The notes beneath the pieces were generated by a model, which worked only from the letters and a program-made list of their open reading frames with translations, made no database searches and was not told the DNA's origin. Below, piece after piece: positions 4,813-39,109 of a stretch of DNA of 64,000 nt (positions within the stretch are counted from its first letter, which is position 1; the number at the start of each line of letters is the position of its first letter). The DNA lies in assembly GCA_027532905.1 (NCBI GenBank), contig JAPZUA010000001.1, forward strand, positions 147,565-211,564. Direction: 5' to 3'. Source of the stretch: Magnetospirillum sp. (GTDB lineage: Bacteria > Pseudomonadota > Alphaproteobacteria > CACIAM-22H2). A program made the position numbers and the translations under genes.

Positions 4813-5913
4813 GTGCCCTCTTCCGGCGTAAAAGCCTTCACCATGGAACAAGTCAAGACACCAGAAGCGCCACCAGCGGTCGCCGGCGATATGAATGCCG
4901 GCGAGTACGACGCCGAAGGCCAGGACGCGCTCCATATTCTGCCGCTGAGCATCATCCCGCTCGAAACGCCGGGATTGCGGCGTCTGCGGCTCATCAAAAA
5001 CGTGCGGCTCGACTCAGTCGTCGAACTCTACAAAGACCAGGGTCACAAATCGGCGCAGGTGCCGCTCGACGCGCTCAACAGCGTGTTTCAGAGCTACGGC
5101 ACGCAGCTGCGCGCCGACATGCCGCTGCTGCAGAGCCTCAGCAGCATTCCCTCGTTCGACGTGTACACGCTGCGCGTGGCCTTGCGCTCCCTCAACTTGC
5201 CCATCGACGAGAAGACCGCTCTGCAGCTCTCGGACTCCAAGCGGCGCGAACTCACCGACCACATGAAGGTGTTCACGCATCCGCTGATCCAGCAGATCTA
5301 CGGCAGCGCCGAATTCGAAGTGAACGACGTATCGGATATCATGAAGTTGATTTCGTCGCCCAACCGCGACGACGCGCTCAAGAACCTGCGCATGATGTCG
5401 CAGAAGCTCAACGTACCGTTGACAGAGATCCCGCGCTTCCTCGAGGACTACGGCGACACATTCCTGTCGCTCGCCTATTTCCGCTCGTGCCTCGACAAGG
5501 TCGTCCCGCAGGTGCAGAGCTTCCTCGATTGGGTGAAGCCGCTTGACGACAACCAGATGATCAAGGGCGACCGCATGTCGAAGCAGATGCTCGACAAGAC
5601 GCGCGAGTCGATGTCGGGCGTGATCATCTCGCTGACCGGCCGCTTCGAAGCCTTCAACCGCAAAAGCTCGGATTTCTGGCGCGACATCAACGCCGACAGC
5701 TTCAGCCGCATGAAGGACATGGTGTTCTCGAACCACCGGTCGATCGGCGGCGTTTTGTGCGGCCTGTCGGTCAAGATGCAGCTGTGGCGCGACCGCTTCC
5801 CGTCGGCGAGCGGCGGCCCCAACAAGCGGCTCGAATTCGTGCGCTCGGAAGTCGTGCCGGGCATGCAGATCATCGACGAGCTCGAAGCGGCCGCGCGCAA
5901 GACCGGGCTTTAA
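4813..5913 (+). CDS. hypothetical protein, 366 aa, no recognisable domain
   Basis: Long ORF 30 nt downstream of cheZ on the same strand. GC noticeably lower than neighbours. Hydrophilic, no TM segment or signal peptide. Alternative start at M11 (4843). Confidence 0.55.
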   Translation: MPSSGVKAFTMEQVKTPEAPPAVAGDMNAGEYDAEGQDALHILPLSIIPLETPGLRRLRLIKNVRLDSVVELYKDQGHKSAQVPLDALNSVFQSYGTQLRADMPLLQSLSSIPSFDVYTLRVALRSLNLPIDEKTALQLSDSKRRELTDHMKVFTHPLIQQIYGSAEFEVNDVSDIMKLISSPNRDDALKNLRMMSQKLNVPLTEIPRFLEDYGDTFLSLAYFRSCLDKVVPQVQSFLDWVKPLDDNQMIKGDRMSKQMLDKTRESMSGVIISLTGRFEAFNRKSSDFWRDINADSFSRMKDMVFSNHRSIGGVLCGLSVKMQLWRDRFPSASGGPNKRLEFVRSEVVPGMQIIDELEAAARKTGL

Positions 5914-5930
5914 GCCCGCCTTTTCGCAAT
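5905..5930 (+). terminator. candidate intrinsic terminator
   Basis: GGGCTT-T-AAGCCC inverted repeat spanning the TAA stop, followed by GCCTTTTCG. Confidence 0.35.
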
Positions 5931-5938
5931 CGGCCCGT

Positions 5939-6002
5939 CAGAATCCGGGCCCGTCGAAATCCGGGCGACTCAAAATCCGGGCGACTCAAAATCCGTGCGA
6001 CA
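5939..6002. repeat. 4 x 16-bp tandem direct repeat (cAAAATCCGGGCGACT)
   Basis: Units are cagaatccgggcccgt / cgaaatccgggcgact / caaaatccgggcgact / caaaatccgtgcgaca. They lie between convergent genes and partly overlap the 3' end of the minus-strand ORF. Confidence 0.8.
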
Positions 6003-6660
6003 GGCAGACCATAGCGGCCTCCTGGCCGCGGAAAGGCATGCGCTTGGCCGTGGCTGCCACCGGCGTCATCACGCCCGACAGCGTTTTGAGCGGGGTGGGC
6101 ATCGGTGCGGACGCCGCGAATTTGCCGGTTGCCGCAAGCAGCGTTTTGAAATCACCCGGCAAGGCGAAATGGGCCGCGATCGACGTTCCCATCAGATCGA
6201 ACTCGCTGCCATCGAGCAATTCGCGGAACGGCGCGTTGAGCCACAGGATCGTCCCATCGGCAACGGCCACCAAAGCCGCCGCGATCGGAATTGCGTCGAG
6301 CGTTTCGGCAAGACGCGTTTCGGCCGCCTGGGCTTCGTTCTCGGCGGCGACCGCAAGGGCGAGCAGCACGCGCCCGGCCCCCAGCCCCACGACACGCAAA
6401 GTGCCTTCGTAGCGGCCGGCAAACATCGTCGCGGGGCCGCACGCCACATGCGCGACGGCCCCCTCGCTGATCGCGTCGATCGCCGCAACCAGATCAGCGG
6501 GTACATCGTCGCCGAAGGCGGGGGCCCCCGGTTCGGCGCCGGCAAATTCCTGCGCGAACAGGCTGTCGGCCCAGACCAGACGCGCCGCACGCGCGCGCCC
6601 CGGTTCTGCCGCCAATACGGCGATCCCGCCTGCAAGTTCCATTTCGCCGTCGTCCGACAT
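5986..6660 (-). CDS. standalone PAS-like domain protein
   Basis: Start MSDDGEMELAGG with GGGGGGA upstream. PAS-like segment DGTILWLNAPFRELLDGSEFDLMGTSIAAHF. No output domain. Confidence 0.45.
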   Translation of the reverse strand: MSDDGEMELAGGIAVLAAEPGRARAARLVWADSLFAQEFAGAEPGAPAFGDDVPADLVAAIDAISEGAVAHVACGPATMFAGRYEGTLRVVGLGAGRVLLALAVAAENEAQAAETRLAETLDAIPIAAALVAVADGTILWLNAPFRELLDGSEFDLMGTSIAAHFALPGDFKTLLAATGKFAASAPMPTPLKTLSGVMTPVAATAKRMPFRGQEAAMVCLSHGF

Positions 6661-6787: not shown

Positions 6788-7566
6788 TGTTCGCAAAAGG
6801 CCCCCTGCTGATCCGCCACGCCGTCGTCACGATGCTCGATGCATTCGCGAAGACGGCGCAGGAAACGGCTGTAAAAAACGGCGGCAAGATCGATTCCGCC
6901 GACATCGCGCGCATCGGCGAAGCGATGAAGAACTCAGGCGAGATCGAGAATTTCTACCGCGCCGTTTTCGGCCAGGTCGTGGCCTCGATCGTCGAATCGC
7001 AGAACCAGCATCGGCGCATAAACGCGTTCGGCCGTCTCGTGGCGCACCCGCTCGGCGATTTTTTCCAGTCGCAGCGCCTCGACCGCGCACTTCTCCACAA
7101 TTTCTTCTTTTTCGTGCAAGCGCTGGTCGGCGAGGCCGAGAACGACTGGAACGCCACCTGCGCTGCCGTGCTCGACGAGATGCGCGACAAAGCGGGCGAA
7201 GCGTTTGCGTGGGAGACCTTCTACAACGATCCGCGCACGCAGGCGATTTTCTGGCAAGTGCTGGTGCGCATCGCCCAGTCCTTCAAGCGCTTCGACACGC
7301 GCCGCGACTGGTTCTTGCGCATCATGCAGCACAAACAGACGTCGGTGAGCCTTGCCCCCAACAAATACGTGCAGCTCGGCGACGGGCTCGACGTCGCCCA
7401 GTTCGGCAAAGACGAATTCCTCAATCTGTTCGACAGCCTGTTTGCACCGGTCAAACGCCTGACACTGCAGGAAGTCGTGCGCTTCGAGGCGGCAACGGGG
7501 CTCGCACCGCGCACGGCTTTCGACCGTTTCTTTAGCGATTTGGACCGCTACAGGCGCGAGCACTGA
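6788..7566 (+). CDS. hypothetical protein (259 aa)
   Basis: This is the 3' part of the long ORF 5995..7566 and starts at internal ATG 6788. Soluble, helical-looking, no motif recognised. Confidence 0.45.
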
Positions 7567-20687: not shown

Positions 20688-20788
20688 CGTATTTTCGATT
20701 CTAACCGGTTCTGGGCGCCGCGCAATCGTTGCCCGCAAAGCATCGGCGTGCGATGCTCGTTTCCAACGACAAAAGAGGGGGAACACGC

Positions 20789-21964
20789 ATGCGAATTCGC
20801 CAGCTGCGGGCATTCATGACGCGCGACAAAGACCGTCCGCGCGTGCTCGTCGCCATCGACACCGACGAGGGAATTACGGGCTGGGGCGAGTGCTACAATC
20901 ACGGGCCCGACCGCGCCCTGATCCCGCTGCTCGACTATCTGGCGATCTTTCTGGCGGGCCAGGATCCGCGCCGCATCGAATATCTGATCCTTTATCTGCT
21001 GCAGCAGAGCCGCTTCCCGCCCGGCGCTTTGGGCCTCGCCGCGATCTCGGCGATCGACCATTGCCTGTGGGACATTTCGGCAAAAGCGCTCGGCGTGCCT
21101 GTCTATCGGCTGCTCGGCGGCGAGGTACGCAACCGCGTCCAGGTTTATGCCGGCGTCTACACCGCCCCCGATCCGCTGATCGCGCGCGATACGTTCGACG
21201 CGCTTTCGGGCGAGTGGGGCATCACGGCTTTCAAACTCAGCCCCTATCGCGGCGACCTCCATCGCCGGCGCTGGGGTGACGTGGTCCGCGAGAGCGCCGC
21301 CTATTTCGCGGCCCTGCGCGAAACCGTGCGCGCCGACTACGAAATCGCGTTCGACGCGCACGCCAAACTCTTCGAGCCCGTGCAGGCCATGCAGCTCGGC
21401 AACGCGCTTGCCCCTTACGATCCGCTGTTCTTCGAAGAGCCGATCCGGCCCGAAAACTTCGAAGCCTGGGGAGCGCTCAAAGCGCGGCTCGACTGCCCGC
21501 TTGCGACCGGCGAATGCCTCTATAGCCGCTTCGAATTCCTGCGCTTGCTGCAGGTGCGCGGTGCAGACATCATCCAGCCCGACATTTGCGTGGTTGGCGG
21601 CCTGCTCGAAATGCGCAAGATCGCCGCAATCGCCGAAGCGCACTACGTGACCGTGGCGCCGCACAACCCGATGGGTCCACTTGCCACGGCCGTGAACGTG
21701 CATTTCAGCGCTGCCCAGCCCAACTTCAAGATCCTCGAATATCGCCTGCCGCACGGTGCCAATTACGACGACAAAAACCCCGACCAGCTCGGCGCACCCT
21801 ACGTGCGCGATCCGTATTTGCCCAAGGACGGGCATCTCGAATTGCGGCCCGACCGGCCGGGCTGGGGTGTCGAGATCGACGAAGAGGTGCTGAAGCGCGA
21901 CGGCTACATACACTGGCAGCGCAAAGTCCCGACCAAGCCCGACGGCAGCAGCGGCTACGTATAG
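20789..21964 (+). CDS. enolase-superfamily (MR/MLE) sugar-acid dehydratase, galactonate/mannonate-dehydratase-like
   Basis: MRIRQLRAFMTRD...TGWGEC...DCPLATGE core. RBS AGAGGGGGAA. Confidence 0.7.
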   Translation: MRIRQLRAFMTRDKDRPRVLVAIDTDEGITGWGECYNHGPDRALIPLLDYLAIFLAGQDPRRIEYLILYLLQQSRFPPGALGLAAISAIDHCLWDISAKALGVPVYRLLGGEVRNRVQVYAGVYTAPDPLIARDTFDALSGEWGITAFKLSPYRGDLHRRRWGDVVRESAAYFAALRETVRADYEIAFDAHAKLFEPVQAMQLGNALAPYDPLFFEEPIRPENFEAWGALKARLDCPLATGECLYSRFEFLRLLQVRGADIIQPDICVVGGLLEMRKIAAIAEAHYVTVAPHNPMGPLATAVNVHFSAAQPNFKILEYRLPHGANYDDKNPDQLGAPYVRDPYLPKDGHLELRPDRPGWGVEIDEEVLKRDGYIHWQRKVPTKPDGSSGYV

Positions 21965-21965
21965 G

Positions 21966-22688
21966 CTAGCGGCCCTTGGCTTTGCGCCATGCCTCGAAAT
22001 CGATTTTCGATTTTTCGTCGGTCGGCGGATAGAGGCCCGCGATCGAGCGACCCTCCTGCACTTTCTCGACGACGAAGTCCTCGAACGCCGTCATCTCGAC
22101 GGCTTCGGTCGCGACTTCATCGGCAATCTCCGCCGGGATCACAACCACGCCCTCGCGGTCGCCGACCAGGACGTCACCGGGCCAAACCGGCACGTCGCCG
22201 CAGCCGATCGGAACGTTGCTTTCGACCGCCTGGTGGAGCGTGAGATTGGCGGGTGCCGACGGGCGATGGTGGTAGGCCGGAAACGGCAGAGCCGCAATCT
22301 CGGGCGAATCGCGAAAGCCGCCGTCGGTCACGATGCCCGCTACGCCGCGCACCATAAGGCGCGTGACGAGGATGCCGCCGGCGGACGCAGCGCGCGCATC
22401 CTTGCGGCTGTCCATCACCAACACGGCCCCCTTCGGGCATTCTTCGATCGCAACGCGCTGCGGATGCTTGCGGTCGAGAAACACCGTGATCGGGTTTAGA
22501 TCTTCGCGCGCCGGGATGTAGCGCAGCGTATAGGCCTCGCCGACCATGTTCGGCAGGTTCCCGTTCAAGGGCCGCACGTCCTGGATGAACTGGTTGCGCA
22601 AGCCCCGCTTGAACAACGCCGTGCACAAGGTGGCGACGCTGACCTGCATCAGCTTTGCCCGCGTCGCATCCGATAGTTTCGGCGCCAT
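21966..22688 (-). CDS. RraA family protein (class II aldolase/4-hydroxy-2-oxo-acid aldolase-like)
   Basis: RraA/MenG-like fold residues (GGILVTRLMVRGVAGIVTDGGFRD). Confidence 0.65.
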   Translation of the reverse strand: MAPKLSDATRAKLMQVSVATLCTALFKRGLRNQFIQDVRPLNGNLPNMVGEAYTLRYIPAREDLNPITVFLDRKHPQRVAIEECPKGAVLVMDSRKDARAASAGGILVTRLMVRGVAGIVTDGGFRDSPEIAALPFPAYHHRPSAPANLTLHQAVESNVPIGCGDVPVWPGDVLVGDREGVVVIPAEIADEVATEAVEMTAFEDFVVEKVQEGRSIAGLYPPTDEKSKIDFEAWRKAKGR

Positions 22689-22691
22689 CGC

Positions 22692-23915
22692 TCAGCCCTT
22701 CGGGAAATAGACGCCGCGCTTGAGGCGCGTCTGCACATAGACCTGCTCGTCGTACGTACCCTCGGCATAGGCGCCGCTTTTGGCGGCACCCGGGATCGAG
22801 ACGTTGCATTCGCTCGGGTGCTGCTTGACGAAAGCCTCGTCGATGTCGACGCCGAGCCCGGGCCCGTCAGGCACTTTGAGGAAGCCGTTTTCCTGCAGGG
22901 GATGCGGCACTACGGTCTGCGCGCGCCCCACCCAATCGTCTTCGATGCGTTCGAGGATGAGGCCGTTCGGGATCGCCGCCAGCACATGCAGGGCAGCGTA
23001 TTCGGCGACGGGCCCGAGCGAGCCCGAATGCGGCGCCATCATGATGTGGTGCGCTTCGGCCTGGGCCGCGATCTTCTTCATCTGCGTAATGCCGCCCGCA
23101 CGGCCCGTGTCGGGCTGCACGATATCGACAAGATCTTTTTCGATGAGTTCGCGCAAGCCGTAGACCGTTGCCATGCGCTCGCCCGCTGCGAGCGTCACGT
23201 TTGCCGAATCGCGGATGCGCCGGAAGCCGTCGAGATTTTCGGGTGCGATCGGATCTTCGACGAACATCAGTCGATAGGGCTCGAGGGCGCGTGCCACTTG
23301 CGCTGCGTCGGCTGGCGTCAGCCACGGCGGCCCGTGCAGATCGATCATCAGATCCATCTCGTCGCCGATCGCGTCGCGCAGCATCGCCACTTTGCGCACG
23401 GGATCCGAGACGCCGCCGCACTTGATCGCCGTGATGCCGCGCTTCTTGAGCGACAGCGCGACCTCGGCCGTGTTGGCATGCGCGTAGATGCGAATGCGGT
23501 CGCGGATTTTGCCGCCGAGCAAATTCCAGACCGGCGTATTGAGCGCCTTGCCCTTGATGTCCCACAGCGCCATGTCGATGCCGGTCATCGCCCCGCCGCC
23601 GACCGTGCCGACCATGCCGTGGCCCATGATGGCGCACATCATCTTCTGCCACAGCCGCTCGATATGCATGGGGTCTTCGCCGATCAGGATCGATTTGAGA
23701 TCCTGCACGGCCGTCTGGATCACGCGCGGCCAGCCGCTGCATTCGCCGATGCCGACGATCCCTTCGTCGGTATGCACCTTCACGAACAGCCAGTTGCGCG
23801 TGCCCGTGAGCCCCTGGCGCGTCGCTTTTGTTCCGAACGAACCGTCGGACGCCCACCCGCGTAGATTGGGCGCATCGACCTGCATCAAAAACGTCTCAAT
23901 ATCGACGATACGCAA
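22692..23915 (-). CDS. enolase-superfamily (MR/MLE) dehydratase
   Basis: GIGECSGWPRV..., KIAAQAEAHHIMMAPH. Same operon as the RraA-like gene and the ABC transporter. Confidence 0.7.
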   Translation of the reverse strand: MRIVDIETFLMQVDAPNLRGWASDGSFGTKATRQGLTGTRNWLFVKVHTDEGIVGIGECSGWPRVIQTAVQDLKSILIGEDPMHIERLWQKMMCAIMGHGMVGTVGGGAMTGIDMALWDIKGKALNTPVWNLLGGKIRDRIRIYAHANTAEVALSLKKRGITAIKCGGVSDPVRKVAMLRDAIGDEMDLMIDLHGPPWLTPADAAQVARALEPYRLMFVEDPIAPENLDGFRRIRDSANVTLAAGERMATVYGLRELIEKDLVDIVQPDTGRAGGITQMKKIAAQAEAHHIMMAPHSGSLGPVAEYAALHVLAAIPNGLILERIEDDWVGRAQTVVPHPLQENGFLKVPDGPGLGVDIDEAFVKQHPSECNVSIPGAAKSGAYAEGTYDEQVYVQTRLKRGVYFPKG

Positions 23916-23936: not shown

Positions 23937-25630
<1,694 letters not shown>

Positions 25631-25634
<4 letters not shown>

Positions 25635-26752
25635 TTGTTGTAGGGGTCGGCTGCATCGCGCAGGCCGTCGCCGAGGAAGTTGAGCGCCATCACCGCGACC
25701 ACGACGGCCGCACCGGGGGCAAACAGCCACGGGGCCGTGGCGATCGAGCGAATATTCTGCGCCTCGCGCAGCAGCACGCCCCACGAGATCGTCGGCGGCT
25801 GCAGCCCGAGCCCCAGGAAGGACAGCGAGGTTTCAGCCAAGATCATCGCCGGGATCGCGAGCGTAATGCTTGCGATGATGTGGCTCATGAAGCTCGGCAG
25901 CATGTGGCGGAAAATCACGCGCCCTTCCGAGGCACCGTCGAGCCGTGCGGCCACGACGAACTCCTCGGTGCGCAGGCTCAGGAAGCGGCCGCGCACCACG
26001 CGCGCCAACTGCGCCCAGCCGGTCAGCGAGAGAATGACCGTGATCATGAAATACTGCGTGGTGGCGGGCCAGTCCTGCGGCATGGCAGCGGCCAATGCGA
26101 GCCAGATCGGGATCGACGGCAGCGACAGAATGAATTCGATCACGCGCTGGATCCCGAAATCGAGCTTGCCGCCGAAATAGCCCGATATGCCGCCGAGCAC
26201 CACGCCGATCGTCAGCGAAAGGAACACGCCGACCAATCCCAGTGACAGCGATATCTGCGCACCCTGCATGATGCGGCTGTAGACGCAGCGCCCGAGACGG
26301 TCCGCACCGAGCAGGAACAGCGGTTGGCGCGCATCGCTCGAGGCGAACATGTGCCGGTCGGTCGGGAACAGGCCGAACAAATTGTATTCGTAGCCCCTGC
26401 CGAATATTTCGAGCGGAATCTTGCGGCTCGTATCTTCGACATACACGGCCGCCAGCGACACGGGATCGCGACGCAGCGCGTAGGGATGGAAATAGGGACG
26501 GAACGCGAAGCCGTCGTCGGTGTCGAAAAAATGGATGGTCTGCGGCGGGTGGAAGGCGGCCCGCGCATTCTGGCGGGCAGGATCGTTCACGGCGAAAAAG
26601 CCCGGGATCGCCGCAACGAGATAGAGGAAGGCCACCACCACGAGCCCCACCATCGCGAGATGATGGCGCTTGAAAGCCCACCACAGCAATTGCCATTGCG
26701 AGGCAACCGCCATCTGCTTGGCATCGACCGCCCCTTCTGCAAGCGCCGCCAT
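25631..26752 (-). CDS. ABC transporter permease (DppC/OppC-like)
   Basis: BPD transport-system inner-membrane component; 6 TM helices. Confidence 0.75.
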
Positions 26753-26755
26753 CGT

Positions 26756-27742
26756 CTACTCCAACCGGATACGCGGGTCGACGAGAGCGAGCAGAATGTC
26801 GCTGACGAGTGAGCCCAGCAAAGTCAAAGCGCAGATCAGCAGCACGAAGGCGCCGGCCAGATACATGTCCTGGCTCATTAGCGACTGCAGCAGCATGGGC
26901 CCCGCGGTCGGCAGGCTCAGCACGATCGCAACGATAACAGAGCCCGACACGAGATTGGGCAGAAGCCACGCGATCGTCGAGATGAACGGATTGAGGGCCA
27001 CGCGCAGCGGGTATTTGACGAGCAAGGCGAACTCCGAAAGCCCTTTGGCGCGCGCCGTAGTGACGTAGGGCTTGTTGAGTTCGTCGAGCATGTTGGCGCG
27101 CATCACGCGGATGAGGCTCGCCGTACCGGACACCGCGAGGATCACGACCGGCACCCACAGATGCGACAAGAGATCGAGCACCTTGCCGAAGCTCCAAGGT
27201 GCGGCGACGTAAGGCTCGGAGAACAGCCCGCCGACATCCTGGCCGAACTTAACGGCCGCCACATACATGAGCACGAGGGCGAGCAGGAAGCTCGGGATCG
27301 CAAGCCCCAGAAAACTGAAGAAGGTCGCGATATAGTCGCCGACCGAGTATTTTTTGACCGCTGAAAAAACGCCGATCGGGAGCGCCAGCCCCCAGGTCAG
27401 CAGCAACGTCGAGACCGTCAGCAGCAAGGTCAGCGACATGCGCTCCCAGATGAGTTCGGAAACCGGCTGCTGCCACTCGAAGCTCAGGCCGAAATTGCCT
27501 TCGGTCACGATGCCGAAGATCCATTTTCCGTACTGCACGATCATCGGCTGATCGAGGCCGAAGCGCGCGCGCAGATCGGCGGCCGTGTTCTGGTCCACGA
27601 TTTCGTTCGAAGCGGCGAGCGTCGCGATATAGGTCGTAACGTAGTCGCCCGGCGGCAGTTCGATCAGCACGAACGACAGGAAGCTCAACGCCACCAGCGA
27701 CGGGATCATCCACAACAGACGCGAAACGATGAAGCGCAGCAT
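26756..27742 (-). CDS. ABC transporter permease (DppB/OppB-like)
   Basis: MLRFIVSRLLWMIPSLVALSFLSF start typical of DppB/OppB. Confidence 0.75.
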   Translation of the reverse strand: MLRFIVSRLLWMIPSLVALSFLSFVLIELPPGDYVTTYIATLAASNEIVDQNTAADLRARFGLDQPMIVQYGKWIFGIVTEGNFGLSFEWQQPVSELIWERMSLTLLLTVSTLLLTWGLALPIGVFSAVKKYSVGDYIATFFSFLGLAIPSFLLALVLMYVAAVKFGQDVGGLFSEPYVAAPWSFGKVLDLLSHLWVPVVILAVSGTASLIRVMRANMLDELNKPYVTTARAKGLSEFALLVKYPLRVALNPFISTIAWLLPNLVSGSVIVAIVLSLPTAGPMLLQSLMSQDMYLAGAFVLLICALTLLGSLVSDILLALVDPRIRLE

Positions 27743-27828: not shown

Positions 27829-29784
27829 TTACGTCGTGAAGAAGAACTGCTGCGGCAGGGACGGGCCCGGGTTGGGCCAGCTCCAGGCCTGCGGCATCTT
27901 CAGCGGCACGTTGCGCAGGTTGTTCTTCGCGATGCCGAACGAGTTGACCGCAAGGCAGACGCCGATCGTCTCGAAAGCGTCGGCCGTGAGGTCGAGCATT
28001 TCCTTGACGATCTGGCCGCGCTTGGCGATGTCGGGCGTGGCGCGCGCATCGTCGAACAGCTTCATGCGGCGCTTTTGGCTTTCCGGCGGCTCCTGGCCTT
28101 CCTTGCCGCCCGACACGTACCATTGCGTCCACGGGATCGCGTAACGCGAGCCTTGCGGATGCTGGGCGAGATAGTCGCGCGGATCGAGGATCGGATCGAG
28201 ACCACCGGGGCCGGGCCACGTCGCCGCGTCGTGGTCGTTATTGTCGCCGCGCGTGTAGTAGAGGGCGCGCTCGATCGTGTTGACTTTGATGTCGACGCCC
28301 AGTGCCGCCCAGTGGCGCTTGACGAGTTCGAGCGTGTCGACCGCGTCCGGGTAGAGGGTCGGGATCACGTCGATCGCGAAGAACACTTTTTGCCCATCGG
28401 GGCGCAGGCGCATGCGGTCGGGCCCACGCCGGTAGCCGAGGCGGTCGAGGATCGCGTTGGCTTGGGCCGGATCGTGGCTCGTGAACTGGCGCGCGAGCTT
28501 TTCGTGGTACCAGGGATGGCCCGGGCGCGGCCCGGTCTGGTAGGGCTCCGACTGGCCGAGATAGACGAGATCGATGATCTCTTTGCGGTCGATGCCGAGC
28601 GACAGCGCCTGGCGGAACTCCTTGTTGGCGAACATGGCGCGCATCGCGGGATCTTTGTGCGTCATGTTCAGATAGATCATGCATTGCTGCGCGCCGGAGG
28701 CGACCAGCTCGACGAGGCGGTAGGCGCCGCGCTGCATGTTCTGCGACAGGGTCGGCTTGTTCTGCAGCGAGTCGATGTGGCGGTCCTGGATGTCGATACG
28801 GCCCGAGATCGTGTCGAGCATCAGCGATTCGACGTCCTGCGAGATGTTCATCGTCAGCTGGTCGATATAGGGCAGCTGTGCGCCGTTGGTGTCGACCTGC
28901 CAGAAATACGGATTGCGGCGCATCGTCACGCGCGTCGCACCGCCCGTGTAGGCTTCCGCGACGACCCAGGGATCGAGCGTGGGCTTCTCGGCGTTGCCCC
29001 AGCGCGACGGAATTTCAATGTCGCCACAGCGCGCGCGGAACAAAGTCGGCCAATCCGAAAGGTTGGCCGCGCGCACCTGGGCGTCGAGGCCAGTGTTATA
29101 TTTCGGATGGAACTGGCTGCAATAATGCTTCGGGAACAGCGTGGGATGCTGACCGAGCGGCGTGGCCAGATTCTCGAGGAACATCGCATAGGGTGCTTCG
29201 AACGCGAACTTCACGGCCGTGTCGCTGACCTTGGTTACGACGGCCGGCTTACCGCCGATCGTGAGCACCGAGGGGACCGAGCGGTAGAGTTCGGAATTCT
29301 TCGTGCAGTCCTCGATCGCGAACACGACGTCGTCGGCGGTGAAGGGTTTGCCGTCCGACCATTTCATGCCCTGGCGCAGATGGAACACGAACTCGGTCGC
29401 GGTGGCGTTCACGTCCCAGCGTTCGGCGACGTTCGGCAGCACTTGCGTGAATTCGAGGTTCCAGCGCACGAGGCCTTGGTTGCCGACCATGCGCAGAATT
29501 CCGTTGTGGTCGCTCGAGCCGCGCAGGCCCCGGCGCAGCGTGCCGCCGTAGCGGCCCACGGTTTCGTGCGGCGTGACTACCATCGGATTGCGCGGCAGGC
29601 GCTGGTCGAGCGGCGGCAGGCGGTTTTCGGCGACCATGCGCGCGAGTTCGGGCGCTTCTTTGGGTGCGGCTTGGGCCAACGCCAAAGGCGGGCTTGCGGC
29701 GAGGGCAGCCACCCCGGCCACACCCTGCAGCAGAACGCGCCGCGATACGGCGCTCTCGGTCTTCGAATCCTGACGGTCCGACAT
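27829..29784 (-). CDS. ABC transporter substrate-binding protein, family 5 (peptide/opine/nickel-type), Tat-exported
   Basis: SRRVLLQGVAGVAALAASPPLALA Tat signal. 651 aa, SBP_bac_5 size. Confidence 0.75.
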   Translation of the reverse strand: MSDRQDSKTESAVSRRVLLQGVAGVAALAASPPLALAQAAPKEAPELARMVAENRLPPLDQRLPRNPMVVTPHETVGRYGGTLRRGLRGSSDHNGILRMVGNQGLVRWNLEFTQVLPNVAERWDVNATATEFVFHLRQGMKWSDGKPFTADDVVFAIEDCTKNSELYRSVPSVLTIGGKPAVVTKVSDTAVKFAFEAPYAMFLENLATPLGQHPTLFPKHYCSQFHPKYNTGLDAQVRAANLSDWPTLFRARCGDIEIPSRWGNAEKPTLDPWVVAEAYTGGATRVTMRRNPYFWQVDTNGAQLPYIDQLTMNISQDVESLMLDTISGRIDIQDRHIDSLQNKPTLSQNMQRGAYRLVELVASGAQQCMIYLNMTHKDPAMRAMFANKEFRQALSLGIDRKEIIDLVYLGQSEPYQTGPRPGHPWYHEKLARQFTSHDPAQANAILDRLGYRRGPDRMRLRPDGQKVFFAIDVIPTLYPDAVDTLELVKRHWAALGVDIKVNTIERALYYTRGDNNDHDAATWPGPGGLDPILDPRDYLAQHPQGSRYAIPWTQWYVSGGKEGQEPPESQKRRMKLFDDARATPDIAKRGQIVKEMLDLTADAFETIGVCLAVNSFGIAKNNLRNVPLKMPQAWSWPNPGPSLPQQFFFTT

Positions 29785-29837
29785 CGGTTCCCTCCCGTTA
29801 TGATGCGCCTTGGGGCGCGTTTGTTGGTTTCATTAGG

Positions 29838-29858
29838 GCACTAATATATCAGAGTGTC
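29838..29858. promoter_or_regulatory. GntR operator-like half-palindrome upstream of the ABC transporter operon
   Basis: GCACTAATATATcagaGTG shares 12 nt with the perfect palindrome at 30677-30696. Confidence 0.5.
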
Positions 29859-30642
29859 AACCTTGCTCCTCTTCGGCCGCATTGGGTGCGGTGGCAGCGG
29901 GTGCGGCGCGCACATATTCGGGAAAGCGCGCGCAGAGATTTTCGATGTTCGCCAGCGTGCCGGACAGATGCTTGCGCAGAAAAGCTTGCGCCACTTCCGG
30001 CTGGCGGTCGGCGATGGCTTCGACGATCGCCTGATGGTCATCGAGAACGATCTGGATCTTGCCGCGGGCGGGCAAATGCAGGCGCCGCAGCCGGTCGATC
30101 TGGCCGCTGTGGCGGCGGGCGAGATGCCACAGATCCTGCACGCGCGCCGCCTCGTACATCAGGCGGTGGAAATGCTGGTCCTCGGCCGAGAAGGCGCCAA
30201 TATCGCTGTCCTTGGCGATCAGGCGCTGGCGCGCAAGCGAGGCGCGCAAGGAAGCGATCAGCTCAGCCGAAGGCGCCATCGCAAGCTCGCGCACGATTTC
30301 GAGCTCGATCGAACGGCGCAGAAAATGCGCCGCGCGCGCGGCCGTAAGGTCGATGAGACTCACGACCGTGGCATGCTGCGGAAAAACTTCGACGAGCCCT
30401 TCGGCCGCCAGCCGCATCAGCGCATCGCGCACCGGCGTTTGGCTCACGCCCAATTGGCGCGCAAGTGCGGCACGCGACAAGACCGTGCCCGGTGCCAGTT
30501 GCAGCGACACGATTGCCTCGCGCAGCCGCTCGAAGGCGTGGGGTGCAGCCCGGCCGCGGCGCACGGGCACCGGCTTGGGTGCCGCAGCCGCCAATCGGCG
30601 GACGGGTTTGCGCGAGCGCAGCGGGGCAGCAGGCGTTGCCAT
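29857..30642 (-). CDS. GntR family transcriptional regulator (FadR/FCD subfamily)
   Basis: N-terminal wHTH (LARQLGVSQTPVRDALMRLAAEGLV) plus a C-terminal FCD domain. Confidence 0.8.
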   Translation of the reverse strand: MATPAAPLRSRKPVRRLAAAAPKPVPVRRGRAAPHAFERLREAIVSLQLAPGTVLSRAALARQLGVSQTPVRDALMRLAAEGLVEVFPQHATVVSLIDLTAARAAHFLRRSIELEIVRELAMAPSAELIASLRASLARQRLIAKDSDIGAFSAEDQHFHRLMYEAARVQDLWHLARRHSGQIDRLRRLHLPARGKIQIVLDDHQAIVEAIADRQPEVAQAFLRKHLSGTLANIENLCARFPEYVRAAPAATAPNAAEEEQG

Positions 30643-30676
30643 GAAACGCAGTGTATCAGAACGCGCGCTAGCGTCG

Positions 30677-30696
30677 AGCACTAATATATTAGTGCT
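30677..30696. promoter_or_regulatory. perfect 18-20 bp palindrome aGCACTAATATATTAGTGCt in the gntR-udh divergent promoter
   Basis: Exact reverse-complement symmetry verified base by base. Centred in an 80-bp divergent intergenic region. Confidence 0.7.
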
Positions 30697-30722
30697 TTGA
30701 AGCGAACCGCTTCCCCGCTAAA

Positions 30723-31559
30723 GTGGCCTTTATAAACGAACGGGAGGGACCCTTGAACATTCTTCTGACCGGTGCCGCCGGGCATATCGGCGGCAAACTG
30801 CGCCGCCTGTTCGCCGGGCGATTCTCGAAACTGCGCGTGAGCGATATCGCCCCCATCGCGGATCTCGCCCCCGGAGAAGAGAATTTCACCTGCGATCTTG
30901 CCGACCGCGACGCGGTCGAACGTGCCATGGTCGGAATCGACGGTGTCATCCATCTCGGCGCCTTGTCGGTCGAGTACGATTTCGACCGCATTCTGCAGGC
31001 CAACATCGTCGGCACCTACAATGTCTACGAGGCCGCACGCAAAGCCGGCACCAAGCGCATCGTGTTCGGCAGTTCGAACCATGCGGTGGGCTTCCATCCG
31101 CGCACGACCACGATCGACCACCGCGTCGATATCCGCCCCGATACGCGCTACGGCCTCAGCAAATGCTGGGGCGAAGCGGTGTCGGCCCTTTATGCCGACA
31201 AATACGGCGTCGAGACGCTCAACATCCGCATAGGCAATGCGGCCGACGTGCCGCAGACCTTGCGCGCCCTCGCCCTTTGGACGAGTGCACGCGATCTCGC
31301 CCAGCTCATCGCGATCGGCCTTGAGCATCCGGATATTCGCTGCGAGATCGTGTACGGCATCTCGCGCAACAGCCGCGCCTGGTACGACAATTCGAACGCC
31401 TATCGCCTCGGCTACAAGCCGCAGGACAGTGCCGACGACCATGTCGCGGCCGCCGAAGCCGGCGAAAGGAGTGCCGTGCAGGACGAGATCTCGCTGCACT
31501 TCCAGGGCGGGCCGTTCTGCTCGGCCGAATACGCAAAACCGCTGCGCGCGGCCCGTTAG
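30723..31559 (+). CDS. udh: uronate dehydrogenase (NAD-dependent epimerase/dehydratase fold)
   Basis: Strong similarity to Agrobacterium/Pseudomonas Udh (GAAGHIGG, YGLSKCWGE, LHFQGG near the C-terminus). Confidence 0.8.
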   Translation: MAFINEREGPLNILLTGAAGHIGGKLRRLFAGRFSKLRVSDIAPIADLAPGEENFTCDLADRDAVERAMVGIDGVIHLGALSVEYDFDRILQANIVGTYNVYEAARKAGTKRIVFGSSNHAVGFHPRTTTIDHRVDIRPDTRYGLSKCWGEAVSALYADKYGVETLNIRIGNAADVPQTLRALALWTSARDLAQLIAIGLEHPDIRCEIVYGISRNSRAWYDNSNAYRLGYKPQDSADDHVAAAEAGERSAVQDEISLHFQGGPFCSAEYAKPLRAAR

Positions 31560-31563
31560 CGCC

Positions 31564-32835
31564 ATGAATCGCTCCAATCCGCGCATCGCCGCCGTCCGCA
31601 CCACGCCGATCGCCTTTCGCGATCCCCCGCTCCTCAACGTGGCCGGCGTGCACGAGGCTTTTGCCTTGCGCAGCATCATCGAGGTCGAAACCGAAGACGG
31701 CCGCATCGGCCTCGGCGAGAGCTACGGCGATCTCGAAACGCTCGCCAACCTCGCCAAGATCGGCCCAATGCTCGTGGGCCTCGATCCCTACGACCTCAAC
31801 GGGCTTGCGAGCCGCAGCTACCAAGCGGTGACGGGCCAGGAATTCGCGGGCCAGACCTATCCGGCCGCCGGCGACAAAGCGCTGGCGAGTGCGACCGCCG
31901 CCTTCGAAGTGGCGTTCCTCGATCTGCAGGGCCAGATCGCGGGCTTGCCGCTCTATGCGATCCTCGGCGGCAAGGTGCGCAGCCACGTGCCCTTCAGCGC
32001 CTATCTCTTCTACAAATTCAAGCAGCACAAGGACAATCCCGGCTACCCCGCCGACGATTGGGGCGAGGCGATCGACCATGCCCAGATCGTGGCGCAGGCC
32101 AAGCGCATGGTGCTTGAATGCGGCTTCGGTTCGATCAAGCTCAAAGCCGGCGTGTTCGAACCCGATTTCGAAATCGAATCCCTGCGTGCATTGCGCAAGG
32201 CCTTCCCCGACCATCCGCTGCGCATCGATCCCAATGGCGGCTGGTCGGTCGCGACGACCAAGCGCGTGATGCCGCAGCTCGACGGTTTGCTCGAATATCT
32301 CGAGGACCCGACCGGTACGCTCGAAGAAATGGGCGAGGTCGCGACCTTCGCCAAAATGCCGCTTGCGACGAACATGGTCACGATCGCCTTCGGCCATATC
32401 CCGAAATCGGTGCGACTCAATTCCGTGCAGATCGTGCTGAGCGACCACCATTACTGGGGCGGCCTGCGCGCGACCCAGAATCTGGCGCAGATCGGCCGCG
32501 TGTTCGGGCTTGGCATCTCGATGCATTCGAACTCGCATCTCGGAATCAGCTTGGCGGCGATGACGCATGTGGGAGCGACGATCCCGAACCTCGCCTATGC
32601 CTGCGACACGCACTATCCCTGGCAGGTCGAAGAGGTGATCGACGGCGGCAAGCTGAAGTTCGAGGGCGGCAGCCTGGCGCCGCCGCAGGGCCACGGCCTC
32701 GGCGTGCGCCTCGACCGCACCGCCCTTGCCACGCTGCATCGCCAGTACCAGACCTGCGGCATTCGCAAGCGCGACGACGCCAAAGAGATGCGCAAATACC
32801 GGCCGGACTGGAGCTCGGCGCGGCCGCGCTTCTAG
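31564..32835 (+). CDS. gudD: glucarate dehydratase (enolase superfamily)
   Basis: GudD-like features (KLKAGVFEPDFEIESLRAL, DPNGGW, 423 aa). Confidence 0.75.
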   Translation: MNRSNPRIAAVRTTPIAFRDPPLLNVAGVHEAFALRSIIEVETEDGRIGLGESYGDLETLANLAKIGPMLVGLDPYDLNGLASRSYQAVTGQEFAGQTYPAAGDKALASATAAFEVAFLDLQGQIAGLPLYAILGGKVRSHVPFSAYLFYKFKQHKDNPGYPADDWGEAIDHAQIVAQAKRMVLECGFGSIKLKAGVFEPDFEIESLRALRKAFPDHPLRIDPNGGWSVATTKRVMPQLDGLLEYLEDPTGTLEEMGEVATFAKMPLATNMVTIAFGHIPKSVRLNSVQIVLSDHHYWGGLRATQNLAQIGRVFGLGISMHSNSHLGISLAAMTHVGATIPNLAYACDTHYPWQVEEVIDGGKLKFEGGSLAPPQGHGLGVRLDRTALATLHRQYQTCGIRKRDDAKEMRKYRPDWSSARPRF

Positions 32836-32837
32836 GC

Positions 32838-33404
32838 TTAGACCGCGAAGAAGACCGTTTCGCCTTCGCCTTGCAGGCGGATATCGAACCGCCACTGGCC
32901 GGACGCTTCTTGCGTTGCGATCAATGTCGAGCGCCGCTCGGCCGGCACTAACGCGAGCACCGGGTCGGTTGCGTTGGCGGCTTCGCCTGCAAAATAGACG
33001 CGTGTATAAAGCCGGTTCAGCAATCCGCGCCCGAGGACGGAAACGGCGATGTGCGGGGCGCTTGCACCTGCCGCACCCGGCCTTACGGTCTGCAACCGGA
33101 AGACGCCGCCCGCATCCGTGGCCACGCGTGCGAACCCTCGGAACGGCGCATTGGCGGGCAGCCCCGCATCCGCCCCCGCATAGCGCCCGGCCGCATCGGC
33201 CTGCCAGAATTCGAGCATTGCATCGCCGACGGGCGCGCCATCGCCGTCCAACACCGCGCCGACGATTTCGATCGCGGCTCCTGCCCCTGCTATCGCCGCA
33301 TCGACGGCGGCTTGGTAGGGATAGCCCGCCGGCGTCAGGCAATAATGGAAAAACGGTCCCACCGTCTGCGACGGCGTGATGCCCAACGTTTTGCGCTCAA
33401 CCAT
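32838..33404 (-). CDS. pcaG: protocatechuate 3,4-dioxygenase alpha subunit
   Basis: ITPSQTVGPFF... and RFDIRLQGEGETVFFAV C-terminus, as in Pseudomonas putida PcaG. Confidence 0.9.
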   Translation of the reverse strand: MVERKTLGITPSQTVGPFFHYCLTPAGYPYQAAVDAAIAGAGAAIEIVGAVLDGDGAPVGDAMLEFWQADAAGRYAGADAGLPANAPFRGFARVATDAGGVFRLQTVRPGAAGASAPHIAVSVLGRGLLNRLYTRVYFAGEAANATDPVLALVPAERRSTLIATQEASGQWRFDIRLQGEGETVFFAV

Positions 33405-34110
33405 GCGAACCACTTTCCATCGGCGTGGCCGCACGGCCGCGCAGCACGATGTCCCACACATAGCCGAGCGCCCATTCGGGCATCGTCGTGTCGATGTCGA
33501 AGCGCGCCACCATGCGGGCGCGCGCGGCGGCATCGGGCACCGAACCCATGATCGGATCGAGTGCGTGCAGCGGATCGCCGGGGAAATACATCTGCGTCAC
33601 CAGCCGCTGCAGAAACGAGCGCCCGAACAGCGAAAAATGGATGTGCGCGGGCCGCCAAGCATTGGCGTGGTTGCGCCACGGATAGGCCCCCGGGCGGATC
33701 GTGGTGAAGCGATAGCGCCCTTGCGCATCGGTCGCCACGCGCCCCGCCCCGTAGAAATGCGGATCGAGCGGGGCCGGATGCTGGTCGACCGCATGGATGT
33801 AGCGGCCCGCCGCATTGGCCTGCCAGATCTCGACGAGCGTGTCGGGCACAGGCCTGCCGTCTTCGTCGAGCACGCGGCCCGACACGACGATGCGCTCGCC
33901 TTGCGCCTCTTTGCCGTCGTCGGTCTTCGTAAGATCGTCGTCGCCGGGGCGGCTCGCATCGTGCCCGAGCATGGGCCCCGACAATTCGGAAGCCCCCGCC
34001 TGGATCGCGATCGGCGGCAGCAAGGGTGCGCGCTTCTGCGTGCTGCGATAGCCCGGCGACAGCGACGGCGCATGCGCTGCCAAACTCGCCACGGGATAGA
34101 TGTCGGTCAT
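33397..34110 (-). CDS. pcaH: protocatechuate 3,4-dioxygenase beta subunit
   Basis: TLVEIWQANAAGRYIH...TIRPGAYPWRNHANAWRPAHIHFSLFG. Confidence 0.9.
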   Translation of the reverse strand: MTDIYPVASLAAHAPSLSPGYRSTQKRAPLLPPIAIQAGASELSGPMLGHDASRPGDDDLTKTDDGKEAQGERIVVSGRVLDEDGRPVPDTLVEIWQANAAGRYIHAVDQHPAPLDPHFYGAGRVATDAQGRYRFTTIRPGAYPWRNHANAWRPAHIHFSLFGRSFLQRLVTQMYFPGDPLHALDPIMGSVPDAAARARMVARFDIDTTMPEWALGYVWDIVLRGRAATPMESGSHG

Positions 34111-34156
34111 GTCGTCTCCCCCCACTCTGTCCCAGCACTTGGCGTGCCGCTTCAGA

Positions 34157-34415: not shown

Positions 34416-34832
34416 TCAGGCTGCGGCTTCGAACAGAATGTCCTGGGCACCCTGCCACAGCACGGTCTTGCCGAAGCTCGCGAGATTTTCGAGCCCGTCG
34501 GTCAGCGTGATGAAATGGTTGCCGGCCAACTGCCCGACCTTGCTCGCAAAGCGCACGCCACCATAGGCCAAGATGAGCTCGGTTTCGCTGATGCCGCCGG
34601 GATAAAGCAGGATATGGCCGGGGGCGGGATAGCTCGTGTGGTTCTCGAGCCCGAGGCCCAAATCGAGCGAGCCGAGCGGAATCCAGCAGCCCTCCCCACT
34701 CCAGCGCACATGGATGATCTTGCTGCGCCAGGGCAGCAGGCTGCGGAATTTCGCCACCGTCGCCGGGGCCGCTTCCGTCTCGAACCGACCGCCGAACACA
34801 TAGCTACCTGCCGTCACGCGCACGCGATCCAT
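34416..34832 (-). CDS. small conserved hypothetical protein (DUF3830/cyclophilin-like fold?)
   Basis: 138-aa ORF upstream of pcaHG on the same strand. Sequence looks non-random, but the family assignment is from memory only. Confidence 0.4.
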   Translation of the reverse strand: MDRVRVTAGSYVFGGRFETEAAPATVAKFRSLLPWRSKIIHVRWSGEGCWIPLGSLDLGLGLENHTSYPAPGHILLYPGGISETELILAYGGVRFASKVGQLAGNHFITLTDGLENLASFGKTVLWQGAQDILFEAAA

Positions 34833-36390: not shown

Positions 36391-37533
36391 ATGCCCCTCA
36401 TCAAATACATCACCGACATCCAGATCGATTTTGGCGCGTCGAAGCTGCTGCACGAGGCTTGCGCTTCCGCGGGCATCAAACGCCCACTGGTCGTGACCGA
36501 TAAGGGCGTGGTCGCGGCTGGTGTGGCCGCCCAAGCGCTTGCCGCGATCGAAGGGAAGCTGCCGTACGCGATTTTCGACGGCACCCCCGGCAACCCGACC
36601 GAGTCTGCCGTCGAGGCCGCCCTCGAGGCCTATCGCGCGCACGGCGCGGACGGGCTTATCGCGGTCGGCGGCGGCTCGTCGATCGATCTTGCCAAGGGCT
36701 TGGCGATCCTGGCCACGCACCCTGCCCCACTGTCGCAATACGCCACGATCAACGGCGGTGCGCCGAAGATCAGCTCGGCGTGCGCGCCCTTGATCGCGAT
36801 GCCGACCACGGCGGGGACGGGCAGCGAAGTGGCGCGCGGCGCCATCGTGATCCTCAAAGACGGGCGCAAGGTCGGGTTCCATTCCTGGCACATCGTGCCG
36901 CGCACGGCCATTCTCGATCCCGACTTGACGCTGAGCCTGCCGCCGGGCCTTACGGCCGCGACGGGCATGGATGCGATGGCGCATTGCATCGAAACCTTCC
37001 TTGCGCCCGCTTTCAACCCGCCCGCCGACGGCATTGCGCTCGACGGGCTGGCACGGGCCGCCAAATGGCTGCGCCGAGCGGTCGAAAACGGCAGCGACCG
37101 CGAAGCGCGCCGCCAGATGATGAGTGCGTCGGCGCAAGGTGCACTCGCCTTCCAGAAGGGTCTGGGCGCCGTGCATTCGCTGTCGCACGCACTTGGCAGC
37201 TACAAAGTAAAATCGCTGCATCACGGCACGCTCAATGCCGTGGTGCTGCCCGCCGTGTTGCGCTTCAACGAAACCGCCGCAAGTGCGGTCGCCGAAGATA
37301 AATACGCGCGGCTGCGCCAGGCGATGGGCCTCGCCGCAGGTGCGGCCGTCGATGCGGCAGTGGCCAAACTCAACCGCGATCTTGGCCTTGCCTCGGGGCT
37401 TGGCGCCATGGGCGTGGAAAAAGACTTCATCGACGAGGCGATCGGCAAGGCGATGAAAGACCATTGCCATGCGACCAATCCGCGCATCGCGACACCCGAA
37501 GAATATCGCGCGATGCTGGCCGAAAGCTGGTAA
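36391..37533 (+). CDS. iron-containing alcohol dehydrogenase (second copy)
   Basis: GGGSSIDLAKGLAIL, MPTTAGTGSEV, HSLSHALG. Confidence 0.8.
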   Translation: MPLIKYITDIQIDFGASKLLHEACASAGIKRPLVVTDKGVVAAGVAAQALAAIEGKLPYAIFDGTPGNPTESAVEAALEAYRAHGADGLIAVGGGSSIDLAKGLAILATHPAPLSQYATINGGAPKISSACAPLIAMPTTAGTGSEVARGAIVILKDGRKVGFHSWHIVPRTAILDPDLTLSLPPGLTAATGMDAMAHCIETFLAPAFNPPADGIALDGLARAAKWLRRAVENGSDREARRQMMSASAQGALAFQKGLGAVHSLSHALGSYKVKSLHHGTLNAVVLPAVLRFNETAASAVAEDKYARLRQAMGLAAGAAVDAAVAKLNRDLGLASGLGAMGVEKDFIDEAIGKAMKDHCHATNPRIATPEEYRAMLAESW

Positions 37534-37570
37534 GGCCGTCGCCCGCGCGTCCGCATTTTTGGAAAAAACC

Positions 37571-39105
<1,535 letters not shown>

Positions 39106-39109
<4 letters not shown>

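Follow-up and report, generated by a model that had tools for sequence, protein, structure and literature searches.

The canonical box of FadR-type operators is TKGT-N2/3-ACMA, and sites within divergons that hold the regulator's own gene are typical of the family (PMC4494728). PMC11705089 describes FadR-subfamily sugar-acid regulators as typically repressors that are released by sugar acids or pathway intermediates. GguR, a GntR-family regulator of glucarate/galactarate/hexuronate utilisation in Halomonas and Polaromonas, controls a regulon that can include Udh, GlucD-like genes and sugar-acid transporters (PMC5507952), and the pathway intermediate 5-keto-4-deoxy-glucarate/galactarate is given as its effector in PMC11705089. 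Here, we analyze a 64,000-nucleotide stretch of Magnetospirillum sp. DNA (contig JAPZUA010000001.1; the window hereafter), in which a palindromic box (site 1) and a near copy of it (site 2) lie at either end of a gene for a GntR-family regulator of the FCD (FadR-type) subfamily. Both sites are predicted operators of the regulator encoded between them, which would repress three transcription units and be released by an effector; from the sequence comparisons set out below, we put the probability of this reading at about 0.8. The sites are read as operators because the box is conserved, because the sole weight matrix matches flank the regulator gene, and because box and regulator co-occur when the search is run in either direction.

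Two related sites flank the regulator gene

The initial annotation described an exact 20-bp palindrome between the regulator gene and the divergent udh gene, and this was borne out both by reading the sequence and by a pattern search. The 18-bp core of the palindrome is GCACTAATATATTAGTGC (30678-30695), which the flanking a/t extends to 20 bp, and the full element is the longest perfect palindrome of the window. The gap that contains it had been given as 80 bp; it is 110 bp, because the regulator starts at ATG 30642 and udh at TTG 30753. A second copy, said to be half-conserved and to sit after the regulator stop codon, is also real, but the description was too weak. The site 2 18-mer (GCACTAATATATCAGAGT, 29838-29855) matches site 1 at 15 of 18 positions (3 mismatches), and the two 12-bp cores (CTGATATATTAG versus CTAATATATTAG) are 1 base apart. 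The extended site also overlaps the end of the regulator gene, taking in its TGA stop codon (29857-29859).

When the 18-mer was searched with up to 3 mismatches, sites 1 and 2 were the only matches in 64 kb, and two matches were obtained in 0 of 100 shuffled sequences. A symmetrised 26-bp weight matrix, built from 54 distinct orthologous sites, scored site 1 at 40.7 bits and site 2 at 25.7 bits, both of them flanking the regulator. No third site reached 8 bits in the window, where the best of 20 shuffles scored 3.6 bits, and the region upstream of a third enolase gene (at 20729) held no site above 8 bits in the same scan.

The regulator has a GntR-type winged helix-turn-helix at its N terminus (PF00392; residues 35-94, 61.7 bits where the cut-off is 27) and, at its C terminus, an all-helical FCD domain for effector binding and oligomerisation (PF07729; residues 108-227, 74.8 bits where the cut-off is 24.3). 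Its closest Protein Data Bank (PDB) entry is 7U5Q (119 bits), and it is also homologous to the FCD structures 7XP0, 3C7J and 3FMS. The ATG start is kept at three orthologous loci (L001-L003). A longer open reading frame from GTG 30681, inside the palindrome, was rejected; the upstream frame is closed by stop codons in L003, L008 and L009. The recognition helix carries SQTP in 79 of 83 regulators and SSTP in the remaining 4, at positions where canonical members, like 7U5Q, read SRTP. Of the four regulators with Ser, three pair with an operator centred on GC; the Rhizobium etli regulator has Gln and yet a GC centre, and two distant regulators with Arg or Lys adjoin the same 16-mer. Given the Rhizobium etli case and the Arg/Lys regulators, a specificity switch from Arg to Gln is at most a possibility.

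Two other roles for the sites were considered and rejected. DNA looping between them is unsupported: the centres are 840 bp apart in the window, the starts of the two sites are separated by anything from 768 to 846 bp at orthologous loci, and no helical phase is kept. A terminator at site 2 was discarded since the sole terminator-like hairpin nearby is on the non-coding strand and lacks a U-tract when read on the sense strand; no Rfam RNA match was found in the region. Within the presumed 5' untranslated region of the substrate-binding-protein gene downstream of site 2 is a short G+C stem-loop (29803-29816; sense strand GCGCC-CCAA-GGCGC), and Tagaea loci have non-homologous hairpins at the corresponding position. 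The stem-loop may stabilise the mRNA or weakly attenuate transcription that runs on from the regulator gene.

The box and the regulator co-occur at orthologous loci

Presence of the motif at orthologous loci had been named beforehand as a test of the proposal, and the motif was found there. Taking one genome per species, we collected 80 loci whose regulators are 55-93% identical to that of the window at the protein level. They span the Rhodospirillales (Telmatospirillum, Tagaea), Hyphomicrobiales and Burkholderiales, that is, alpha- and betaproteobacteria, and include Microvirga, Bradyrhizobium, Cupriavidus, Paraburkholderia, Caballeronia, Acidovorax and others. Allowing 0-5 mismatches, the 18-mer is present in the divergent region 40-200 bp upstream of the regulator in 77 of the 80. 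Two of the three remaining loci are cut by contig ends and have no upstream DNA; the third has lost the intergenic region. At this last locus (L037, Acidovorax sp. SUPP3334, 5600-6020), the sole full-length one without the box, an IlvD-like gene abuts the regulator as if the control region had been deleted.

The box is confined to the surroundings of this gene. In 932 kb of orthologous loci, matrix matches of at least 10 bits occur only in the divergent region of the regulator or at its stop codon, and every one of the 12 Rhodospirillales loci with the downstream transporter operon keeps site 2 at the stop codon. Target genes differ among loci, leaving the regulator as the only constant beside the box. 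The divergent genes are udh plus a GlucD-like gene, or the GlucD-like gene alone, in Rhodospirillales, and a GlucD-like gene together with genes for MFS transporters in Paraburkholderia and Caballeronia. In the case of Cupriavidus, Bradyrhizobium, Microvirga and others, the loci carry an IlvD/Edd-type dehydratase and an RraA-like gene (72-80% identical) in the regulator divergon; Rhizobium etli has the same pairing, with the RraA gene in the same position. This conservation strongly supports reading the palindrome as an operator for the adjacent GntR/FCD regulator, with a repeat ahead of the Dpp-type ATP-binding cassette (ABC) operon, and the comparative evidence likewise supports a regulon of three units.

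More distant regulators keep related boxes. One that is 50% identical lies on Sinorhizobium meliloti pSymB (L204, position 6021), and one that is 43% identical is found in R. leguminosarum TA1, where pRltTA1D (L205) has related boxes at 380-430 and 6800-6850. In R. leguminosarum the divergon also includes genes for KdgD, for an aldehyde dehydrogenase and for a Dpp-type ABC transporter, and the regulons of these 43-50%-identical regulators together add KdgD, aldehyde dehydrogenase, 2-hydroxyacid dehydrogenase and Dpp-type ABC transporters. The added genes point to an oxidative sugar-acid pathway.

The association also holds when the search starts from the DNA. We queried metagenome contigs with the bare 16-mer CACTAATATATTAGTG. 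Of the high-G+C contigs in which the 16-mer has purine..pyrimidine flanks, 17 extend for no less than 800 bp to either side; 16 of these encode an orthologue of the regulator no more than 450 bp away, and the one that does not has an RraA-like gene nearby. If truncated contigs are counted too, the regulator is found in 29 of 35. Low-G+C contigs with the 16-mer have no regulator, bar one cut contig, and these copies are read as chance occurrences.

Candidate promoters, a repression model and its alternatives

In Rhodospirillales, site 1 lies between two outward-facing -10-like boxes, CCGCTA-type on the udh/GlucD-like side and CTAnnC on the regulator side, and -35-like hexamers (CTTTGA; CTCGAC or GTGACA) touch each edge of the palindrome. 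In the window, the candidate regulator -35 overlaps the palindrome by 1-2 bp and the -10 sits 8 nt before the ATG, while the candidate udh -35 abuts the palindrome on the other side and is followed by a ribosome-binding site (GGGAGGGA, 30742-30749). The CkyGAC and CTAnnC boxes are kept in 14 Rhodospirillales sequences (the window and 13 orthologous loci). Because the CTAnnC box ends only 8-12 nt before the regulator ATG across these 14 and no Shine-Dalgarno sequence precedes the ATG in any of them, the regulator mRNA is suggested to be leaderless or near-leaderless. Toward the divergent gene, a gCTAnAg or CCGCTAT box is kept at the same distance in L001-L013. Conservation is 0.89 across the site 1 footprint, compared with 0.57-0.59 in the flanks.

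Site 2 has a different layout. An alignment of 13 loci gives an invariant TTGACA, then the 17-nt operator C-n-CTGATATATTAGTGC, then CCTAAT or sTAAAT. The TTGACA (29855-29860) contains the TGA stop codon of the regulator, so the gene end overlaps the candidate transporter promoter. The block is conserved at 0.89, against 0.53 upstream (C-terminal coding sequence) and 0.57 downstream (5' untranslated region). Betaproteobacterial sites, yTGACr-CACTAATATATTAGTGC-TTTAAT before the divergent catabolic gene, share this layout. An operator placed within the -35/-10 spacer, as these promoter predictions would have it, is a repressor arrangement. Six Paraburkholderia and Caballeronia loci (L036, L038, L048, L069, L031, L043) have, in addition, a weak half-site, TATAGTACTAATnTTTCA, on the regulator side of the main site and some 80-100 bp from it. 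This half-site coincides in part with a TATAGT -10-like box that closely precedes the regulator gene, which suggests a separate autoregulatory site at these loci.

We propose that a dimer of the regulator would bind the box, with its CTAAT-N2-ATTAG core and GCA/TGC flanks, through the winged helix-turn-helix domain. Site 1 would lie between back-to-back promoters; since it touches both -35 elements, a single bound dimer would repress udh and the GlucD-like gene as well as the regulator's own gene. At site 2, which would form the -35/-10 spacer of the six-gene operon promoter, a bound dimer would block RNA polymerase and could also stop transcription running on from the regulator gene. Release of the repressor would follow when the FCD domain binds a sugar acid or a keto-deoxy pathway intermediate. 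We infer both autoregulation and the repressor mode from position only.

Several observations weigh against this model. A strict promoter consensus scan called no promoter at the sites; the promoters were therefore assigned from conservation and from matches to a relaxed consensus. The core of the box, CTAAT-AT-ATTAG (TAAT-N2-ATTA), is without the canonical TKGT/ACMA core, and the conserved GCA/TGC lies further out. If the candidate -10s are right, the centre of site 1 (30686.5) is about 41-45 bp upstream of both presumed starts, a position that activators also use. The regulator might therefore bind as proposed and yet act at site 1 as an activator or dual regulator, recruiting RNA polymerase to udh, to its own promoter or to both. 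The spacing resembles that of a class-II activator, and E. coli FadR is a dual regulator that activates at fabA. We nonetheless consider activation unlikely, given that site 2 and the betaproteobacterial sites occupy the -35/-10 spacer, which is incompatible with it, that characterised FadR-type sugar-acid regulators are typically repressors (PMC11705089), and that the 41-45 bp figure is itself a guess from candidate -10s. A 20-bp perfect palindrome of any composition is also not rare in a window of 65% G+C: the analytic expectation is 0.15, and palindromes of at least 20 bp arose in 66 of 200 Markov simulations of the window. Chance could on those figures account for the palindrome together with a fortuitous partial repeat, but the simulated palindromes were G+C-rich, the expectation for one with at least 6 A/T per half is 0.0016, the shuffles never gave the pair of matches, and conservation across orthologous loci refutes the idea, to which we give next to no credence.

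The remaining difficulty concerns which protein reads the box. In 9 metagenome contigs a near-identical sequence, TCACTAATATATTAGTGA, which has the same 16-bp core with T..A flanks, adjoins genes for HpaR-like MarR regulators and for FAH-family proteins. The core alone is thus not unique to the GntR protein; almost the same box appears to serve a regulator family unrelated to it, and genome scans should include the flanks. The MarR genes adjoin TCACTAATATATTAGTGA in L086, L091, L112, L119, L127, L136 and L147, some of which also have adjoining FAH-family genes. On this evidence the palindrome could be bound by a factor encoded elsewhere, such as a MarR/HpaR-like protein, the GntR gene being an incidental neighbor. 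That seems very improbable: the sites in the window and all orthologous sites are flanked by G/A..C/T rather than T..A, no MarR gene lies beside the sites in the window, the box travels with the GntR gene while other neighbors change, and the reciprocal searches recover the regulator. Slightly less credible again is the view that the conserved blocks are simply promoter elements (-35, A/T-rich spacer, -10) that serve no dedicated regulator. TTGACA and A/T-rich hexamers do flank or overlap the block at site 2 and in betaproteobacteria, but spacers are not normally conserved in sequence, whereas the dyad-symmetric 18-mer is near-invariant from Rhodospirillales to Burkholderiales. In Rhodospirillales, moreover, the same box lies outside a spacer, between two -35 boxes, and neither the window nor the 932 kb of loci has it anywhere but beside this regulator. 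Repression by the GntR/FCD regulator remains the reading that we prefer.

Gene content of the locus and relation to described systems

The coordinates of the sites, candidate promoters and genes are collected in Table 1. Most of the gene identities first assigned to the locus hold: GntR plus FCD, the SBP_bac_5/OppC-type ABC transporter, the enolase-superfamily and RraA-like genes, and Udh. The similarity of Udh to solved Udh structures spans residues 3-260 of 268, and its start position is kept in L001-L004. The gudD label given to the next gene is not supported. That gene begins 4 nt past the udh stop codon, which places it in the same operon; at about 45 of the 80 loci it is the gene paired divergently with the regulator. 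Its product scores far below the GudD cut-off. The closest structures are the enolases 4IT1, 3VDG, 3VA8 and 3VC5 (433-500 bits), whose PDB names are all generic or "putative/probable", whereas E. coli or Pseudomonas GlucD gives only some 190 bits; the label is unsafe for these reasons, and we use GlucD-like instead. Literature searches by the PDB and locus names of this clade returned nothing relevant on function.

Downstream of the regulator, after 72 bp, lies a tightly packed six-gene operon on the minus strand. The substrate-binding protein encoded by its first gene is 83-98% identical in L001-L013. The dehydratase of the operon matches NF010624 at 277 bits, under the cut-off of 311. Three different enolase-superfamily genes fall within 12 kb (20729-21964 on the plus strand, 22692-23915 on the minus strand and 31564-32835 on the plus strand), the first of which converges on the RraA-like gene. 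Beyond the GlucD-like gene are a protocatechuate-dioxygenase-like gene (33397-34125, minus strand), a DUF3830 gene (34416-34832, minus strand) and an aldehyde dehydrogenase gene (37469-39109, plus strand), none of them with an operator site.

Table 1. Positions of the predicted operators, candidate promoters and genes of the locus in the window
Feature	Position	Strand	Details
RraA-like protein (class II aldolase/decarboxylase fold), last gene of the operon	21966..22688	-	PF03737 112.7 bits; NF006093 348.7 bits
Enolase-superfamily acid-sugar dehydratase, galactonate/mannonate-dehydratase-like	22692..23915	-	PF13378, PF02746; PDB 3SJN, 3RR1
ABC permeases and fused double ATPase	26756-27742, 25631-26752; 23937-25634	-	Pfam BPD_transp_1, OppC_N, ABC_tran x2, oligo_HPY
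Family-5 (Dpp/Opp-type) ABC substrate-binding protein, Tat-like signal peptide, first gene of the operon	27829..29784	-	PF00496 210.6 bits
Candidate sigma-70-type ABC-operon promoter	29832..29860	-	-35 TTGACA 29860..29855; 17-nt operator spacer 29854..29838; -10-like CCTAAT 29837..29832
Site 2, candidate weaker operator	29834..29859	-	minus strand reads TGACACTCTGATATATTAGTGCCCTA; overlaps regulator TGA stop; upstream of ABC operon
GntR-family regulator, FCD (FadR-type) subfamily, 261 aa	29857..30642	-	Pfam GntR and FCD; recognition helix GVSQTPVRDALM
Candidate regulator promoter	30651..30678	-	-35 CTCGAC 30678..30673; 16-nt spacer; -10 ATACAC 30656..30651
Site 1, candidate main operator	30677..30696	no strand	perfect 20-bp palindrome aGCACTAATATATTAGTGCt, in the 110-bp regulator/udh divergent region
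Candidate udh promoter	30695..30723	+	-35-like CTTTGA 30695-30700; 17-nt spacer; -10-like CTAAAG 30718-30723
udh, uronate dehydrogenase homologue, TTG start	30753..31559	+	PDB 3AY3 229.5 bits, 3RFT (A. tumefaciens Udh) 222.4 bits; Pfam Epimerase
GlucD-like enolase-superfamily gene	31564..32835	+	TIGR03247 229.5 bits against cut-off of 828.7

The arrangement is an ordinary one, a standard local bacterial repressor-operator circuit. What is noteworthy is that the box hardly varies between two proteobacterial classes, that its core is non-canonical, and that it is linked to enzymes lacking a curated function. It is conceivable, and we offer this tentatively, that box and regulator mark a widespread, unnamed alpha- and betaproteobacterial regulon for a sugar-acid pathway whose steps lack biochemical assignment, under a branch of the FadR subfamily that switched from TGGT to TAAT. 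The recurring enzymes of that regulon would be the sub-cut-off GlucD-like enolase, an IlvD/Edd-type or enolase-type dehydratase and the highly conserved RraA-like protein, which may be the missing aldolase or decarboxylase of the pathway. The box provides a precise, conserved DNA handle, with a weight matrix, for a sugar-acid regulon of many soil- and plant-associated Proteobacteria. It ties GlucD-like enolases and an RraA-like protein, neither of which has a curated assignment, to uronate dehydrogenase and transporters, which helps with substrate guesses and with the design of induction experiments or biosensors. It also extends, by one well-sampled case, the set of FCD-type GntR regulators whose operators are non-canonical, leaving the understanding of the class unchanged.

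The motif strings appear in no searchable full text and not in the accessible part of the Suvorova 2015 supplements; RegPrecise, which lay outside this search, may catalogue them. The sugar-acid FCD repressors and their relatives (DgoR, UxuR/ExuR, Bacillus subtilis GntR, LldR and PdhR) resemble the regulator of the window in their GntR winged helix-turn-helix and all-helical FCD domain, in an A/T-rich palindromic operator within their own divergon, and in targets for sugar-acid transport and dehydration. They differ in the TKGT-N2/3-ACMA box and in an Arg (SRTP) recognition helix where the clade of the window has Gln or Ser. That box is shared by most but not all FadR-type members, BioR and NanR being recognised exceptions. 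BioR, also of the FadR subfamily, binds TTATMKATAA, a palindromic A/T-only box without a GT/AC core, and so sets a precedent for the box of the window (PMC4494728), although it differs from the present regulator in sequence, regulon (biotin) and protein clade. HpaR-like MarR regulators share the near-identical 16-bp core beside the regulator gene, but they belong to an unrelated fold family, their sites have T..A rather than G..C flanks, and their targets are FAH-family/aromatic-catabolism genes.

The functionally closest described system is GguR, which we compare by description; its motif is not in the Leyn 2017 supplements. Its effector is a plausible model, by analogy, for that of the regulator in the window. 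Pfam and NCBIfam named none of KdgD, Gli, Gci or KGSADH among the operon genes of the window that were scanned, and the only aldehyde dehydrogenase gene is about 4.6 kb away, across unrelated genes. Unlike the GguR system, the operons of the window include genes for a Dpp-type ABC transporter, for a second dehydratase of the enolase family and for an RraA-like enzyme.

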